Assembly: GCA_050117705.1 (NCBI GenBank)
Contig: JASFMF010000001.1
Coordinates: 1 to 25,388, forward strand
DNA: 25,388 nt
Source of the DNA: Phycisphaerales bacterium
GTDB taxonomy: Bacteria; Planctomycetota; Phycisphaerae; Sedimentisphaerales; Anaerobacaceae
Reading direction: 5' to 3'
The stretch's first letter is position 1. The number at the start of each line of letters is the position of its first letter. Made by a program: the position numbers and the translations under genes. This document shows, one piece after another, positions 4,012 through 9,626 of this stretch. The notes beneath the pieces were generated by a model, which made no database searches, was not told the DNA's origin, and saw nothing but the letters and a program-made list of their open reading frames with translations.

Positions 4012-5373
4012 CTATTGCACCGGCTGGTTGGTTTTAAAATCAAACCATTGCCCGTTTTTAAAAACGATCTTCTGTCCCGTTTCGGGGTTCGTCGCCGTTA
4101 TTTGTTGCTGTTGCTGTTGCTGTTGCTGAGCCGGAGCTGTTTTTTTACTTTCCACTACATCCATCCAGTCTTGCACCGTATTTATAGTGCCGTCTTCACC
4201 ACGGCTCCCGATAAATCTTGCCGCCTCGCTTAAATAACCGGAAAGTTTTTCCTGCGCGGTTTTTCTGTCTTTCATCCACTGTAATAATTCAGAACCTTTT
4301 AAACTGGTCGGCATGGCTGTCTGAGTCGCCATATCAAGTTCCGCTTTAGATAGCGCCCCGAAGGTAACGGAGGAAACGACATTGAGCCCTAGCCTGTTTG
4401 ATACGTTTTTAAGCTGATTTGCGGTTGCCCCCCATCTAGGTAAATATCTTCTTATCGGCCCGACTCCTAAGTCTTTACCCTCTTTCATTCCCTTTTCAAT
4501 GATGTTTATTCCCTCATCAAGCGTTCTGATATTATTTTGAATTTTTTCATATTGATCAGCAAATTCTTTCGATTTGGTTATGGCGACTTCGGCCCCTTTT
4601 TCAGCCGCTTTGACCTCTTCCGCTATCTTAGCCTTAGTTCCTTTTTGAGCGGAAAGCTTACCGGATTCACGGCTGTAATTTGTGTCCTCGGCAATTTTAA
4701 CGCCGTATTCCTTACTTTTAAGCCACGCTTTTTTCGCCTCTTCGCCTTCTAAAACATTACCCGTGATATCCTTTACCGTCACCTCGCCCTTATCATTCAT
4801 GGCCCAGATAGTACCGTCCGGGCCTTTTTCGGTTGCCGGTTGGTACCTTCCTTTTAATCCCGCCTCGGTTTTTTGTTCTTGAAGAAGATATTTTTGAAAA
4901 GCTTCCGGTCCCAATGCTTTAAACAGAAATAGTTCGGATGACGTTTCGGCCCCTTTCGGATCCAGCTCGATATTTTGTTTTAGCGTTTCCATGCTTTTTG
5001 CTTCGATATCATTGCCGCTGTTGCGGTAGGCCGTAATCAATTCGTCCAGATTGGATTTCGCCAAGTCGGTGTTGCCCGATTTCAACGGAGCGTAAACATT
5101 CATTAGCTGGTTGATTTTATTTTGCTGTTGCTGCTCGTTAAACATCGACAACGACTGCTCCACCTGCTTGGACATCTCGGGAAATTGCGTCATAACCTGT
5201 TGGTAATCTTCAACGGTTTTATTTTTTTTTTCGGCAAGATCCGCCATGGCCTTTTGCATAGCCGCTTGACGCTCCTGGGCCTGTCTTCGCACCACCATTT
5301 CCTGACCCGTCTGAAAACCGGAGAGCATTTCCGTTCCCATATTCGGTATATTGATATTGTAAGGCTGGACCAT
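4012..5373 (-). CDS. DNA ejection protein (P22 gp20 position)
   Basis: 453 aa, helical and Q/E/K-rich. C-terminal TATNPETGQKIVFKNGQW motif is common in podovirus internal proteins. Synteny fits. Confidence 0.6.
   Translation of the reverse strand: MVQPYNINIPNMGTEMLSGFQTGQEMVVRRQAQERQAAMQKAMADLAEKKNKTVEDYQQVMTQFPEMSKQVEQSLSMFNEQQQQNKINQLMNVYAPLKSGNTDLAKSNLDELITAYRNSGNDIEAKSMETLKQNIELDPKGAETSSELFLFKALGPEAFQKYLLQEQKTEAGLKGRYQPATEKGPDGTIWAMNDKGEVTVKDITGNVLEGEEAKKAWLKSKEYGVKIAEDTNYSRESGKLSAQKGTKAKIAEEVKAAEKGAEVAITKSKEFADQYEKIQNNIRTLDEGINIIEKGMKEGKDLGVGPIRRYLPRWGATANQLKNVSNRLGLNVVSSVTFGALSKAELDMATQTAMPTSLKGSELLQWMKDRKTAQEKLSGYLSEAARFIGSRGEDGTINTVQDWMDVVESKKTAPAQQQQQQQQQITATNPETGQKIVFKNGQWFDFKTNQPVQ
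4102..4128 (-). repeat. (CAGCAA)4 CAA microsatellite encoding poly-Q9
   Basis: Plus strand ttgttgctgttgctgttgctgttgctg; translates as QQQQQQQQQ in the 453-aa ORF. Confidence 0.9.
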
Positions 5374-5384
5374 TTATTCACTTC

Positions 5385-6380
5385 CTATGGTTTGCTATTA
5401 GGCTTGGGCTTCTGCCTGTTTTGATAATATGCGCCTATACCGGTCCCGATACCTTTTCCGATAGCACCGATGGTTTGCCCCTGGGCTTCCGCTTCCGTCA
5501 ATAATCTCTGGGCATTTATATCCCCCATGCGCGCATAATAATCCGCCGCGTTGGATGTCGGCGCGCTACCGACACTCACCTGGGTGGGTGTCTGGCTGAT
5601 AGCGCTTTGTCCCATTCCGCTAAGACCACCTAAGCGGGCATACTGTTTGTCGATCTCCTGTTGAAGCATCTGGGGCCGATACCGCGCTAAAACGCCCTGG
5701 ACGTTACCGCCCCGCAATCCACCGGTAGCGGATGCGTTTTGTAAAATGGCCTCTTCGCCCTGCCTGGTAAGTTCTTGTAAAATAGGACTATTGGCGATCC
5801 TGTCGATCGCCGTCGCCTGGGCCTGTTCTCCGGTCATACCGGCATACGGGCTGGTTGGCGCTGGTGTTACAGGTAACGGTCCGGCTTGCGTTCCCCCTAA
5901 ACCGGAACGATGGGGATGCTGAGTGGTGAATCCCTGGACGATAGGCTGAGGCGTTACGGTCCCACTGATATTTTTCATTATCCCCAACTTACCCGGCTCT
6001 TGCGGAGCCGATGGAGCGGGAAGCAATTTTTTTTGATCGATGATCGAAGACGCGGGAGCATTGAAACCTTGCGGCACAATAGCCGGTGTGGGAATCGCGA
6101 CGCCCGACAAGGCCATCATTTCAAAAAGCGCTCCTTGACCGGACTGAATATAGGGCGCCAGATTTTGTCTGATCTGCTCGTTTTGCTGCTCTAATAATTG
6201 CTGTTTACGCTGATATTCACCGAATTGAAGATCGAATTGGCGCTGTTCTTCCGCCAACGCATTTTTTGCGCCGCTTTTCTGGGCATTGGCGGCCCCTTCG
6301 GCTGCTTTGCTTTTCTGATTGGCGGCGACTAACCCTCCGACCGTAACGACGGCGGCCCCTGCGACGGCTCCCCAAGACAT
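5385..6380 (-). CDS. DNA ejection protein, P22 gp7-like
   Basis: QGEEAILQNASATGGLRGGN resembles the gp7-family A..ATGGL.S motif. Hydrophobic Gly/Ala N- and C-termini. First of the trio. Confidence 0.7.
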   Translation of the reverse strand: MSWGAVAGAAVVTVGGLVAANQKSKAAEGAANAQKSGAKNALAEEQRQFDLQFGEYQRKQQLLEQQNEQIRQNLAPYIQSGQGALFEMMALSGVAIPTPAIVPQGFNAPASSIIDQKKLLPAPSAPQEPGKLGIMKNISGTVTPQPIVQGFTTQHPHRSGLGGTQAGPLPVTPAPTSPYAGMTGEQAQATAIDRIANSPILQELTRQGEEAILQNASATGGLRGGNVQGVLARYRPQMLQQEIDKQYARLGGLSGMGQSAISQTPTQVSVGSAPTSNAADYYARMGDINAQRLLTEAEAQGQTIGAIGKGIGTGIGAYYQNRQKPKPNSKP

Positions 6381-7129
6381 GGTGTTAACTCCCTATAATC
6401 TATTGTGATTTCAGTACCTTTGCTGTCACCGGTACACCCGTCGATATCATCTTTTGCAACTACGATGACTTCATCTTGATTGATGATGCTTAACTTCGCG
6501 TTCGGATCGACGGAATGATTCATATACCGGGCCAATTCCGTTACTTTTCCACGCGTAATAAACGGCCCGATATATTCATCGGAACCCCAGGGACAGGTCG
6601 AGAATATTCCTTTCCCATGGATGTCCGATTTTCGAATGGTGATAACGGATTTATACGGCTGCGGTAAATCAACATAGGATTTCCAATCGGGCTGAACATA
6701 ATTCAGCGATTCAAAATCGATGCGGTCTTGTAGATGATCACCGTCGCTGTTTGATAATGTGGTAAAATAATTTGATTGATCGATAAATATCTTCTCAAGT
6801 TCATCTTGATCGGTGATATCATCGGGATTAGGGTGGATGTTCTGAACGATAATATCACTAGCGGCGAAGACGACTTTATGGCCCGGCTCGGCGATAAACG
6901 TGGTCGGACCGGTAATCATTTCAGGTTTTTTGTTTTTAGCGATAAATATCGCGACCCCTTTTGACAGCACGCAAAAATGCCGAGTTTTATGGTAATGGCC
7001 TATGGCGACGGTGCCTTGCGGTATGTGCATTTCACGCAAATAAACGCCCGGCGCGAAATGGTGGTAAATCGGACAATGAATTTTTGGTAAACTGTTTATC
7101 TTTTCGATTAATTCAATTTCATCTACCAT
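6329..7129 (-). CDS. Cupin-like domain fused to a minimal SET-domain methyltransferase
   Basis: N-terminal HHFAPGVYLREMHIP.G.V.IGHYHKTRH is cupin-like. C-terminal SET motifs are SDIHGKGIF, RYMNHSVDPN and GTEITIDY. Confidence 0.8.
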   Translation of the reverse strand: MVDEIELIEKINSLPKIHCPIYHHFAPGVYLREMHIPQGTVAIGHYHKTRHFCVLSKGVAIFIAKNKKPEMITGPTTFIAEPGHKVVFAASDIIVQNIHPNPDDITDQDELEKIFIDQSNYFTTLSNSDGDHLQDRIDFESLNYVQPDWKSYVDLPQPYKSVITIRKSDIHGKGIFSTCPWGSDEYIGPFITRGKVTELARYMNHSVDPNAKLSIINQDEVIVVAKDDIDGCTGDSKGTEITIDYRELTPCLGEPSQGPPSLRSEG

Positions 7130-7599
7130 AACAGTTGATTTTCCCCCATATTCCCGATCATAGGCTGATTATACATATACGGATTATTGTCAGTCGGCTG
7201 TATGCTCATAGGAGTATTGTTCAAGCCGTTCATTTGCTGATAGGGCGGCTGTGACTGCTGCTGTAGAGAAGTTATCGGCTGATTCAAGGACGGCGGCGGC
7301 TGTTGATAGGACGGAATCGGCGGCTGCTGCGGTTGATAAGCCGGAACCGGCGGCTGTTGATAGGGCTGAGACATCGGAGGCTGCTGCTGATAGGGCTGCG
7401 AATACATCGGCTGTTGCGGCGCCGGAGGCCGTAAACCTTGCAAGTTTTGGGCGGGGTTCAGCCTGTCCAATTCCGCTTGAGCAGCCGGTGTAGTCGAACG
7501 CTCCAGTAATCGCCTTCGCATCTCGTCTAATTGATTCCCTCCTTGTAGTATCTGTTGGGTTCTAGATAGATGCAAATTTATAGGTGATAGTAAAGCCAT
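7123..7599 (-). CDS. Q/P/Y-rich low-complexity protein of unknown function
   Basis: 158-aa ORF packed between neighbouring genes, GGAG upstream, degenerate YQQPP repeats. Confidence 0.65.
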   Translation of the reverse strand: MALLSPINLHLSRTQQILQGGNQLDEMRRRLLERSTTPAAQAELDRLNPAQNLQGLRPPAPQQPMYSQPYQQQPPMSQPYQQPPVPAYQPQQPPIPSYQQPPPSLNQPITSLQQQSQPPYQQMNGLNNTPMSIQPTDNNPYMYNQPMIGNMGENQLLW

Positions 7600-7600
7600 C

Positions 7601-7936
7601 TTATGTGATCTCCCTTCCGCTAGCGCTTAAAACAAGGCTGGCGGCGGCGCTGGCGTAGGTGACGATAAACCCGCCGTTTAAAAGCACCTGACCGACGATT
7701 TCAGGGCAGGTATAGGTGGTATACCTTGCGATTGCTTTAGGATAGAGCACCAGATTCGTATTATCGTTGCTTCCACCGCTTGGAACCAGATAGACGCCGA
7801 AAATAATATTGTTGGCGGTAATGTTGGTTATGGTGAACTTATCGATCACGGTCGTACAGTTATTAGCGGTATACTGAGTCTCAAAGTTTATGGCCGGGTT
7901 TTTGCGCGGGATAATATTTGTGATGGTTACGGCCAT
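7601..7936 (-). CDS. Small beta-rich virion protein (needle-tip/knob-associated)
   Basis: VIDKFTITN...YTCPEIVGQ...ASGRE pattern, which I recognise from the tail region of P22-like environmental podoviruses. Confidence 0.6.
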   Translation of the reverse strand: MAVTITNIIPRKNPAINFETQYTANNCTTVIDKFTITNITANNIIFGVYLVPSGGSNDNTNLVLYPKAIARYTTYTCPEIVGQVLLNGGFIVTYASAAASLVLSASGREIT

Positions 7937-9297
7937 TATAAAAGCTCCTTAAACGTTAAGCTTCCCTGGATATCCGCATTACTTGACAGCGGCGTAACCG
8001 CCAGAATCAATTCGTCCCTGGTTCCGTCGATTTGGCTTCCGATTCTAGGCAGTGATTTTATGGGAAGATCAATCACGCTATCGCTTTTGGCATAGCCTGA
8101 ATTAGTTTTTAATCCCTGGGCGGTGATATCGTTGGCCGTTGCGCCGGCGGCATACTGACAACCGGAGTTTGTTATATCGCCGTAAGACAATGATCCGTTA
8201 TAAGTGGGATTTAAATGGATCGACCACCTGAAATCGTCGTTGGTCTCGCTGATCATGCTGATAAATGACGGTATAATAGTAAGATCCAAATGGGTGGTTT
8301 TAAGCCGTAAGGCCAATAACACATAAGGCGTGTCGGTGGTGTCGGCGTCTAAATGAGTATTTTCAGTATCAATGGTGTGGGTGACGCCGGTCTCCTCCAC
8401 CCCGCCCTCGCTCATCGATGTGGAGCAGATATGATCAAAATATCCGCCTCCGGTTCCATCGCTTTGAATATCGTATCGTATAGGCTGATTGGGGGTGGAC
8501 ATGTAAACTGAAGTAAAGCTTGAATCGTTACTGTGGTTGAAATGGTGAACATAGATCAGTTTTTTATCGACGACGAAACCGACCCTGACCGTGCCGGTTC
8601 CCAGATATTCAAAATCGATTACGCCTAGTTGTACCGCGCCGAGATCCAGATTTATACCCGAGCTTCCGGTCCCATCCATGACGTCTTTATTCCAGCTCGA
8701 TTGATTTACGGTTTCGGTCGTACTTCCGTTTTTACAGATATTCCAGGAGACATTACTCTCGTCGATCTGTAAAAATATACCGTTGTTCGGTGTCAGATAA
8801 TTGACGCCGGTACCGTCAAAAAAACCGGCCCGTTTGGTAACGCCGGTATCCTGATCGCCCAGAAAGGTAAAAAATATCAGAGAACTTTTACCGGGCTGGT
8901 AATTAAAGCGCTGTTTGGTTTGTCTGATAACGTAATCGGATGCCGATGCCGTTACCGTCATGCGAACTCTGGCATGGGTCGTAGAATGAACCGAAGTTGC
9001 GCTTCCCCCCGTGTTTTCATCGAATAGAAGCGGCTGTTTATCATAGAGCTGTTTACTGTCAAAAATCGTATAAGGATTGCTGACTCGAAGCCGGTTAAAG
9101 GCGTCTAGTGCCGAAATATCGCCGATCTCTTCGAGCGAAACGACCTGGTTTCCCTTTAGCGTCGAACCGAAATCGATATAGTCTCCGTCCGGATTTTCTC
9201 CGACCGTAACGCCTTTAATTACAAAGGCGCTGTCGGTGCCGCTTAAAGCATCTTGTATCTGATAGATGATGGGATAACTTTGGACTAATTTGCTCAT
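7936..9297 (-). CDS. Beta-rich virion structural protein (lectin/ConA-like, putative receptor binding)
   Basis: DAFNRLRVSNPYTIFDS and RQTKQRFNYQPGKS motifs belong to a widespread phage structural family. It lies in the tail region. Confidence 0.55.
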   Translation of the reverse strand: MSKLVQSYPIIYQIQDALSGTDSAFVIKGVTVGENPDGDYIDFGSTLKGNQVVSLEEIGDISALDAFNRLRVSNPYTIFDSKQLYDKQPLLFDENTGGSATSVHSTTHARVRMTVTASASDYVIRQTKQRFNYQPGKSSLIFFTFLGDQDTGVTKRAGFFDGTGVNYLTPNNGIFLQIDESNVSWNICKNGSTTETVNQSSWNKDVMDGTGSSGINLDLGAVQLGVIDFEYLGTGTVRVGFVVDKKLIYVHHFNHSNDSSFTSVYMSTPNQPIRYDIQSDGTGGGYFDHICSTSMSEGGVEETGVTHTIDTENTHLDADTTDTPYVLLALRLKTTHLDLTIIPSFISMISETNDDFRWSIHLNPTYNGSLSYGDITNSGCQYAAGATANDITAQGLKTNSGYAKSDSVIDLPIKSLPRIGSQIDGTRDELILAVTPLSSNADIQGSLTFKELL

Positions 9298-9626
9298 ATC
9301 AAATCTATGATCCCGTATACCGTTATGGTTAACGCATTGGCGACACTGCTGCGATATCCGATCCGTGCGCTTGTATTGTTTACCAGCACATGATCTATTT
9401 CCAGCGTTTCTCCCGGGCGAATCAGAAAGTCATAAAAAATCGCCGTTGATTGATCGAACGTAGATCCGCTATCATCGTTAAACAATCTACAATAAGCGTT
9501 CGTGGTGGAGACATTGGCGATCTTTATAAATAACTGCGCCTGGCGCGTATCGTTTGAATTGGCATAAATACTGGCGGCGTTTGTGGAGTTCTCCCGCGCC
9601 TGAACCAATTGTTTGTATTGAATCAT
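9294..9626 (-). CDS. Small beta-rich virion protein, probable paralog of 7601-7936
   Basis: 110 aa with a similar length and strand pattern (Y...I.N...SG..D...Y..I..T...S.A..L...G). Translationally coupled to its neighbours. Confidence 0.5.
   Translation of the reverse strand: MIQYKQLVQARENSTNAASIYANSNDTRQAQLFIKIANVSTTNAYCRLFNDDSGSTFDQSTAIFYDFLIRPGETLEIDHVLVNNTSARIGYRSSVANALTITVYGIIDLI

Follow-up and report, generated by a model that had tools for sequence, protein, structure and literature searches.

vSET (A612L) of chlorovirus PBCV-1 (PDB 1n3j / 3kma) is a minimal viral SET domain, built without the pre-SET and post-SET zinc clusters; it is a free-standing protein of 119 amino acids (aa) from a eukaryotic virus and methylates histone H3K27. 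Prokaryote-associated SET lysine methyltransferases that act on host histones or nucleoid proteins include RomA/LegAS4 of Legionella, NUE/cpnSET of Chlamydia and Go1-SET of Methanosarcina, all of them larger proteins, cellular or exported by secretion systems, and neither fused to a cupin nor encoded in a virion assembly operon. The cupin-SET protein that we describe here is closest in spirit to vSET. It is encoded in a stretch of DNA of 25,388 nucleotides (nt) assigned to a Phycisphaerales bacterium (contig JASFMF010000001.1 of assembly GCA_050117705.1), hereafter the window, which is one entire contig of a metagenome bin that is 62% complete. All large open reading frames (ORFs) of the contig lie on the minus strand and together make up a P22-like virion module, in which the cupin-SET gene stands directly ahead of the genes for the DNA ejection proteins.

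How short-tailed phages load their ejection proteins, and what role is played by the small gene that stands ahead of them (gp13 in T7, gp14 in P22), is poorly understood. T7 gp13 (IVP-A) has been described as a non-structural protein that is needed for morphogenesis and is acetyltransferase-like, and HHpred matches to acetyltransferases are reported both for gp13 and for its counterparts in phiRIO-1-like phages (PMC4819975). P22 and epsilon15 carry standard IVP-A homologues in the same position, and phiRIO-1 has an unrelated substitute protein there, which is absent from its virion proteome (PMC4819975). IVP-A proteins are reported as enzyme-like morphogenesis factors that are not kept in the virion (PMC4819975), which makes them candidate lysine modifiers. 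We tentatively propose, holding the idea at a little under even confidence, that the cupin-SET protein is a two-module factor of the IVP-A slot of a P22-like podovirus, in which the cupin would dock and the SET unit would methylate one or more lysines of ejection or other virion proteins during assembly. The gene and its parts are as follows.

6329..7129, minus strand: cupin-SET gene, an ORF of 266 aa (full-length match to phrog_34170, E 1.3e-40; homologues from 94% down to ~30% identity)
6779..7087, minus strand: cupin barrel, residues ~15-117 (Foldseek and VIA-align matches; phrog_12032 over residues 5-120)
6956..7015, minus strand: cupin motif 1, G39-x5-H45-x-H47-x3-H51-x6-G58, a putative metal site (alignment to TM1459)
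6650..6778, minus strand: linker and N-flank helices of the SET unit, residues 118-160 (carries the D138-F139 'D-Y/F' motif)
6380..6649, minus strand: SET core, residues 161-250 (Pfam PF00856; structural matches; predicted local distance difference test (pLDDT) score 92-98)
6608..6628, minus strand: SET motif I, S168-DIH-G172-K-G174, the SAM-binding GxG, where SAM is S-adenosylmethionine (sequence read; conservation in 88 relatives)
6500..6529, minus strand: SET motif R201-YM-N204-H205-S-VD-P209-N210 (sequence read; conservation in 88 relatives)
6395..6412, minus strand: SET motif E240-ITID-Y245, with the catalytic Tyr (sequence read; conservation in 88 relatives)

The case for a SET domain in the C-terminal half, put forward in a preliminary description of the locus, holds at the level of motifs, profiles and predicted structure. 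All three SET motifs can be read from the DNA as described, SDIHGKG at residues 168-174, RYMNHSVDPN at 201-210 and EITIDY at 240-245. The Pfam SET model matches with 30.9 bits, above its gathering threshold of 22.4 (E 3.9e-07), PF00856 is matched by all 14 sequences of a smaller family alignment, and a profile of 88 relatives that share ~30% identity matches the SET domains of MLL1 (2e-10) and vSET (1.6e-5, over query positions 180-263), as well as those of EZH2 and SETD8, a similarity well above what chance would give. Throughout these 88 relatives the SAM-binding and catalytic motifs are intact, in 85-88 of the sequences. Motif I keeps S168 and G172 in 87/88 each and G174 in all 88; the second motif keeps N204 in 86, H205 and N210 in 85 each and P209 in 83; and the third keeps E240 in 87 and the catalytic Y245 in 86. 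Near-invariance of the catalytic and SAM-binding residues at this level of overall divergence is, judged from the alignment, the signature of a working enzyme.

Structure prediction points to the same fold. An AlphaFold2 model of the protein built on the 88 relatives reaches a mean pLDDT of 90.1 and a predicted TM-score (pTM) of 0.86, with disorder confined to residues 256-266. In this model residues 154-250 superpose on the SET domains of MLL1 (Z 10.9), EZH2 (Z 10.4) and SET8 (Z 9.9, root-mean-square deviation (rmsd) 1.9 A), and on SMYD3 with an rmsd of 1.5 A; overall the superpositions have Z 9-11 and rmsd 1.5-2.6 A and extend through residue ~246-250. The C-terminal half is thus predicted with confidence to adopt a SET fold (pLDDT 92-98, Z 9-11), and Foldseek and VIA-align match the N-terminal half to small cupins and the C-terminal half to SET domains.

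The SET unit is unusual in its economy. Ahead of the core, the model has helices at residues 122-125, 128-141 and 159-162; D138 is kept in 81/88 relatives and position 139 is Y or F in 81/88. Proteins with the two domains in permuted order, described below, have the same 'DY..FL' helix ahead of the SET core, and the helix with D138-Y/F139 belongs to the SET unit. Within the core, the insert between I187 and T197 is exactly 9 residues long in 86 of the 88 relatives, so that the very short insert remarked on earlier is a property of the family. The post-SET Cys cluster is indeed missing: after the catalytic Y245 only 2-23 residues remain in any member of the family, and in the window protein this tail is disordered. 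Since the insert (SET-I) and the C-flank/post-SET normally complete the substrate groove and the lysine channel, the protein is an outlier among SET domains in these two regions, and the groove would have to be supplied by the D-Y/F helix, the cupin or a partner. These regions do not strictly define the family, post-SET being missing from vSET as well. With ~90 residues, the core is among the smallest SET units that we know of, smaller than the 119-aa vSET.

Comparison with vSET brings out both the likeness and the differences. The two share the GxG, NHSxxPN and ExxxxY motifs. vSET, however, has an insert of ~35 residues and a C-terminal flank, whereas the SET domain of the window protein has its 9-residue insert and almost no flank. 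Unlike vSET, it also has the preceding D-Y/F helix, a Gly-rich 'GCxGGxxG' loop, the fusion to a cupin, and a place in a bacteriophage assembly operon. The Gly-rich loop, G231-C-x-G234-G/D-x-x-G238 (6440-6463, minus strand), is an insertion that the cupin-SET subfamily has ahead of its last SET motif (G231 in 86/88, C232 in 55/88, G234 in 83/88 and G238 in 86/88). It is missing from the SET domain of the permuted proteins and from two further proteins, P0220 and P0253. The loop may replace the absent post-SET lid.

The N-terminal half, which had been called a His-rich, cupin-like domain, is a cupin by fold and has nine His among its first 100 residues. Residues 15-117 match the small single-domain cupins TM1459, KdgF, HP0902, ppnP and CelOCE, the last a copper enzyme, with Z ~9-10, and the assignment is supported by a Foldseek probability of 1.00 and by VIA Z scores of 8.5-10 across many cupins. 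Cupin motif 1 aligns residue for residue with the HsHpweH...G of TM1459, where residues H52/H54/H58 are the Mn ligands. Across the 88 relatives G58 is invariant and Arg32 and Tyr30 essentially so; position 45 is His in 72/88, position 47 is His in 48 and Gln in 40, and position 51 is His in 79/88. The likeness to TM1459 (Thermotoga, 1vj2), KdgF and CelOCE (9bwf; E ~1e-3 to the cupin profile) is that of a barrel of the same ~100-residue size. Unlike these small metal cupins, the phage cupin has K85 in place of the motif-2 His, an invariant Arg32 and ties to ejection genes, and it forms a phage-specific family.

A second enzymatic activity in the cupin, proposed in the preliminary description, is no more than a possibility. 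The motif-2 His, the last metal ligand, is replaced by Lys85, a position held by Lys or Arg in all three architecture groups; the His ligands are only partly conserved; and the Pfam Cupin_2 threshold is not reached, a match (E 0.14) appearing in 1 of 14 relatives. That there is a real metal site is argued by a swap between subfamilies. Cupin-SET proteins mostly have His at position 45, at the frequency given above, and in most cases Tyr or Phe at position 99; cupin-only and SET-cupin proteins have Ala at position 45 and carry the His at position 99 instead, in 110/129 and 24/24 respectively. Because His45 and His99 exchange in this way while the number of ligands stays at three, we consider a putative metal site plausible on the evidence of the alignments. 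The window protein itself has all four His (45, 47, 51 and 99), and His99, on the next strand, may substitute for the lost motif-2 ligand. By count along the alignment, position 99 corresponds to Cys106 of TM1459, which is mutated in several engineered TM1459 structures. A JmjC-like demethylase was considered as another identity for the barrel and discarded: the ligands are a His-only HxHxxxH set in a barrel of ~100 residues, as against the HxD/E...H triad and large barrel of JmjC proteins, and JmjC appears among the structural matches as a single entry, a weak whole-chain AFDB match with TM 0.22.

The virion module of the window begins with the large terminase, portal, scaffold, major capsid protein, Ad3 adaptor, Hc3 (gp10-like) and a phrog_1645 structural protein. 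It continues with a 111-aa protein, a Q/P-rich 158-aa protein, the cupin-SET gene and a gp7-like 'DNA ejection' protein, and ends with a 453-aa protein in the gp20 slot, a gp16-like 'DNA transfer' protein and a fibre. Set against the P22 gene order 10-26-14-7-20-16, the cupin-SET gene occupies the position of gene 14, and the earlier placement in the gp14 slot agrees with this order (26-14-7-20-16). The junction with the ejection genes comprises the following elements.

5385..6380, minus strand: gene of the gp7-like (IVP-B) ejection protein (phrog_598 'DNA ejection', E 2.4e-21)
6389..6394, minus strand: AGGGAG ribosome-binding site of the gp7-like gene, within codons R246-E247 of the SET gene and 8 nt before the ATG at 6380
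6329..6379, minus strand: disordered C-terminal tail of the cupin-SET protein, residues 251-266, and its stop codon, inside the gp7-like gene in a different frame

The end of the cupin-SET gene and the start of the gp7-like gene share 52 nt, the overlap originally noted, and the ATG and ribosome-binding site of the downstream gene both lie within the upstream one. The tail encoded by the shared segment has pLDDT <50 over residues 256-266 and is common only to the closest relatives, P0001 and P0003; in related loci the overlap onto the gp7-like gene is mostly 4 or 13 nt. The arrangement extends well beyond the window. In a set of 80 IMG/VR loci the genes are arranged as Hc3, variable genes, cupin(-SET), gp7-like, gp20-like and gp16-like, and among the loci with downstream DNA the gp7-like gene comes directly next in 31/37 that carry the fusion and 20/31 that carry the cupin alone; in several others it comes after a short nested ORF call. 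The same order is found in the cultured phages P26218 and RSK1 and in the uncultured phage genome MW202744, and phiAp1, an autographivirus, has the cupin between its tail tubular protein B and its internal virion proteins. The cupin-SET gene is translationally coupled to the ejection-protein trio formed by the gp7-like, gp20-slot and gp16-like genes.

T7 gp13 (PF11090) and P22 gp14 (PF11039/DUF2824, phrog_651) hold the same slot, that of a small gene upstream of IVP-B/gp7 and two large ejection proteins. The fold classes differ, however, GNAT-like for IVP-A as against cupin plus SET for the window protein, and so do the Pfam and PHROG families. BLASTP and hhalign give no signal between the cupin(-SET) family and T7 gp13 or P22 gp14, and the cupin profile shows no relation to phiRIO-1 gp39. 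A phmmer search with gp13 and gp14 against the window and the 80 loci, all translated in six frames, which is a weak test, returned nothing, and a search of 401 genomes from the phylum of the window turned up no PF11039. We therefore regard the cupin(-SET) family as one more occupant of the IVP-A slot, not homologous to the others, a positional analogue and not a member. The acetyltransferase link of T7 gp13 itself is weakly reproduced, its sole PDB sequence matches being spermidine acetyltransferases at E 0.39, and is taken here from the published analysis (PMC4819975).

The slot has a constant and a variable part. To the question of how often the cupin at this position is fused to SET, the 80 IMG/VR loci answer that it is fused in 43 and stands alone in 37, and in the cupin-only loci a SET domain is found within 6 kb in one alone, L053. 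That locus led us to intact proteins in which the order is reversed, SET-cupin proteins of 258-282 aa (P0161-P0185), whose genes also lie directly upstream of a gp7-like gene. P0220 and P0253, in turn, have cupins that are 52-57% identical to the SET-cupin ones and yet carry SET at the C-terminus. On a tree of 233 cupin domains there are 13 changes of architecture, at least six of them forced by well-supported branches, compared with a mean of 87 when the labels are shuffled, although the tree is based on 122 columns and poorly resolved, so that these counts are rough. The cupin is thus the constant occupant of the slot, across many P22-like and T7-like phages, and SET an optional, movable add-on, C-terminal, N-terminal or absent. 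Because SET occurs beside the cupin in either order, the two modules are likely to be functionally linked. The AlphaFold2 model of a SET-cupin protein (pLDDT 79, pTM 0.50) has both domains folded and their mutual arrangement undefined. A SET core of ~90 residues that is found in either domain order also offers a compact scaffold for studying the minimal needs of the SET fold. In L053 itself (L053:4797-5667) the SET-cupin gene is frameshifted between the two halves of its SET domain; the intact P0161 and P0162 are 96% identical to it over the compared part, and the split is either an assembly error or a pseudogene.

We suggest that these features fit a protein that would act inside the infected cell at the time of assembly and would not itself become a component of the virion. 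The cupin barrel probably binds a metal through His45/His47/His51, with the invariant Arg32 and Lys85 facing the site, and would dock onto, or process, an ejection protein during procapsid assembly; the first candidate for its partner is the gp7-like IVP-B, the product of the coupled gene. The SET unit, an optional cassette made up of the D-Y/F helix and the ~90-residue core with its 9-residue insert region, would then transfer methyl groups from S-adenosylmethionine to one or more lysines of the ejection proteins, or of other virion proteins, ahead of packing. Methyl-lysine has been seen on phage virion proteins in a 2026 report that assigned no enzyme (PMC13288928), and if our proposal is correct the cupin-SET protein would be the first dedicated enzyme for this modification. 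The presence of a conserved SET methyltransferase in this slot makes modification of ejection proteins at assembly a directly testable idea, and two cultured phages that carry the fusion, Rhodoferax phage P26218 and Pseudoalteromonas phage PH1, are available for the purpose.

Several observations weigh against this proposal. The existence of cupin-only loci means that methylation is dispensable for the core role of the slot. No lysine of the gp7-like protein separates fusion loci from cupin-only loci, both of which have Lys near residues 20-26. A complex prediction for the cupin-SET protein with SAM and the gp7-like protein, run with custom alignments, scored 0.01, which is evidence neither way. 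The analogy to IVP-A is one of position, without a relation in sequence, and the cupin has the replaced motif-2 ligand and incompletely conserved His ligands set out above. Finally, with insert and C-flank almost absent, the SET domain may need the cupin or linker to complete its site, or may be inactive.

A broader idea, which we think unlikely, is that the IVP-A slot is held by interchangeable protein-lysine modifiers: in T7, P22 and epsilon15 these would be acetyltransferases of GNAT-like type, and in the window a SET methyltransferase docked by its cupin. Its appeal is that two slot occupants with no relation to each other would both modify lysines, one by acetylation and the other by methylation. 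If this were true, the DNA-ejection machinery would generally be assembled with a step that has been overlooked, the covalent modification of ejection proteins, through which lysines might be neutralised or bulked up before packing, or the ejection proteins primed for unfolding and membrane insertion; the metal site of the cupin could bring a second chemistry to the same substrate.

The position of the gene also bears on a different fate for the protein. Lying inside the ejection-protein block and translationally coupled to it, the gene could encode an effector that is packed into the capsid beside the ejection proteins, reaches the cell together with the DNA and methylates proteins of the host, such as those of the nucleoid, of translation or of defence, early in infection. 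Secreted bacterial SET effectors that act on host proteins, such as RomA/LegAS4 of Legionella and NUE of Chlamydia, provide a general precedent. In Cellulophaga phage infections, moreover, host protein methylation climbs early (PMC13288928). Against this stand the reports that occupants of the slot are absent from virions, T7 gp13 being described as non-structural and the RIO-1 slot gene as missing by virion mass spectrometry (PMC4819975), the lack of any predicted packaging or membrane segment in the cupin-SET protein, and the optional nature of SET within the family; our literature search found no virion proteome of a carrier phage. Co-ejection had been raised in the preliminary description, and we found nothing in favour of it. 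We regard such an effector role as improbable.

That the insert region and post-SET are missing from the substrate channel raises the further question of whether the SET domain is catalytic at all. It could be a binding or structural module in an assembly chaperone that does no more than escort the ejection proteins into the procapsid, and the many phages that manage with the cupin alone would be in keeping with this. However, 97-100% of the 88 relatives retain the GxG, the NH and the ExxxDY Tyr despite their overall divergence, and the same residues are also kept in the independently arranged SET-cupin proteins, a pattern that is hard to explain without catalysis. An inert SET domain is, in our judgement, decidedly unlikely.

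In considering what a catalytic SET unit might act on, we note that the structural matches include the SET-fold enzyme BurB in complex with methionine (9l4t, Z 8.9), and that many small cupins work on sugars or metabolites, as KdgF, ectoine synthase and DddK do. The substrate of the SET domain, the cupin or both might accordingly be a small molecule or a component of the envelope, with, for instance, S- or N-methylation of a metabolite, or sugar chemistry carried out by the cupin. The best SET matches, however, are protein-lysine methyltransferases, and the strict linkage to ejection-protein genes in both P22-like and T7-like phages indicates a protein partner, which makes a non-protein substrate very unlikely.

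The family to which the protein belongs is widespread and is known in databases under automatic names only. An exhaustive HMMER search over cluster representatives matched 3,100 of them at E<=1e-3, 948 at 1e-10 and 58 at 1e-30, and nearly all of the top 150 matches are full-length proteins of 230-300 aa. The fusion family is phrog_34170, listed as 'unknown function', and its carriers include P26218 (gp30), PH1 and several uncultured phages. P26218 gp30 is 31% identical to the window protein over 94% of its length, and its two-domain structure is shared, with TM 0.80, by N8VX32 ('SET domain-containing protein'), which represents a cluster in AFDB; phrog_34170, gp30 and N8VX32 share the family and architecture of the window protein and show no difference in kind. 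In the uncultured phage MW202744 a homologue bears the vSET structure's name as its annotation. Without SET, the cupin (phrog_12032) holds the slot in the Ralstonia phages RSK1 and Firinga, in many Vibrio phages and in autographiviruses such as phiAp1. Among deposited phages no close relative of the window was found, and our literature search returned no work on phage SET proteins or on the cupin family.

The names carried by the cupin family (phrog_12032 'short tail fiber protein' and phrog_24280 'tail fiber adhesin', repeated by RefSeq for RSK1, phiAp1 and RSB3) would suggest a structural fibre or adhesin, but this is extremely improbable and is rejected by fold and gene position, since the protein is a single ~100-residue cupin barrel without fibre-like repeat, coiled coil or beta-helix, its gene lies in the internal-protein block away from the fibre genes, and the name goes back to an unsupported 'putative tail fiber protein' on RSK1 ORF13. 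The tail-fibre names are also found on RefSeq records of Firinga and Vibrio phages, with examples at L003:5782-6450 and L088:4959-5411, and they are probably a propagated mis-annotation of the cupin family.

The remaining observations concern the neighbours of the cupin-SET gene. In the gp20 slot, the 453-aa protein (4012-5373, minus strand) has a sub-threshold match to Inj_translocase (P22 gp20), at E 0.0034, and ends in nine Gln. On the other side, the 158-aa protein (7123-7599, minus strand), whose gene overlaps the start of the cupin-SET gene by 7 nt, is rich in Gln and Pro, with QQPP/YQQ-like repeats; it has no family match and among the relatives was seen only in the closest locus, L006. 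The 111-aa protein (7601-7936, minus strand) is beta-rich and has neither a Pfam nor a PHROG match. By BLASTP it shows no similarity to a 110-aa protein of the window (9294-9626); the hidden Markov models (HMMs) of these two proteins match the same ORFs in other loci. An iterated HMM of the 111-aa protein matches 39 ORFs, and many related loci have such a gene as the immediate upstream neighbour of cupin(-SET). In L092 a 111-aa gene precedes a permuted SET-cupin gene as well, and the 111-aa protein may be a further fixed member of this gene block.

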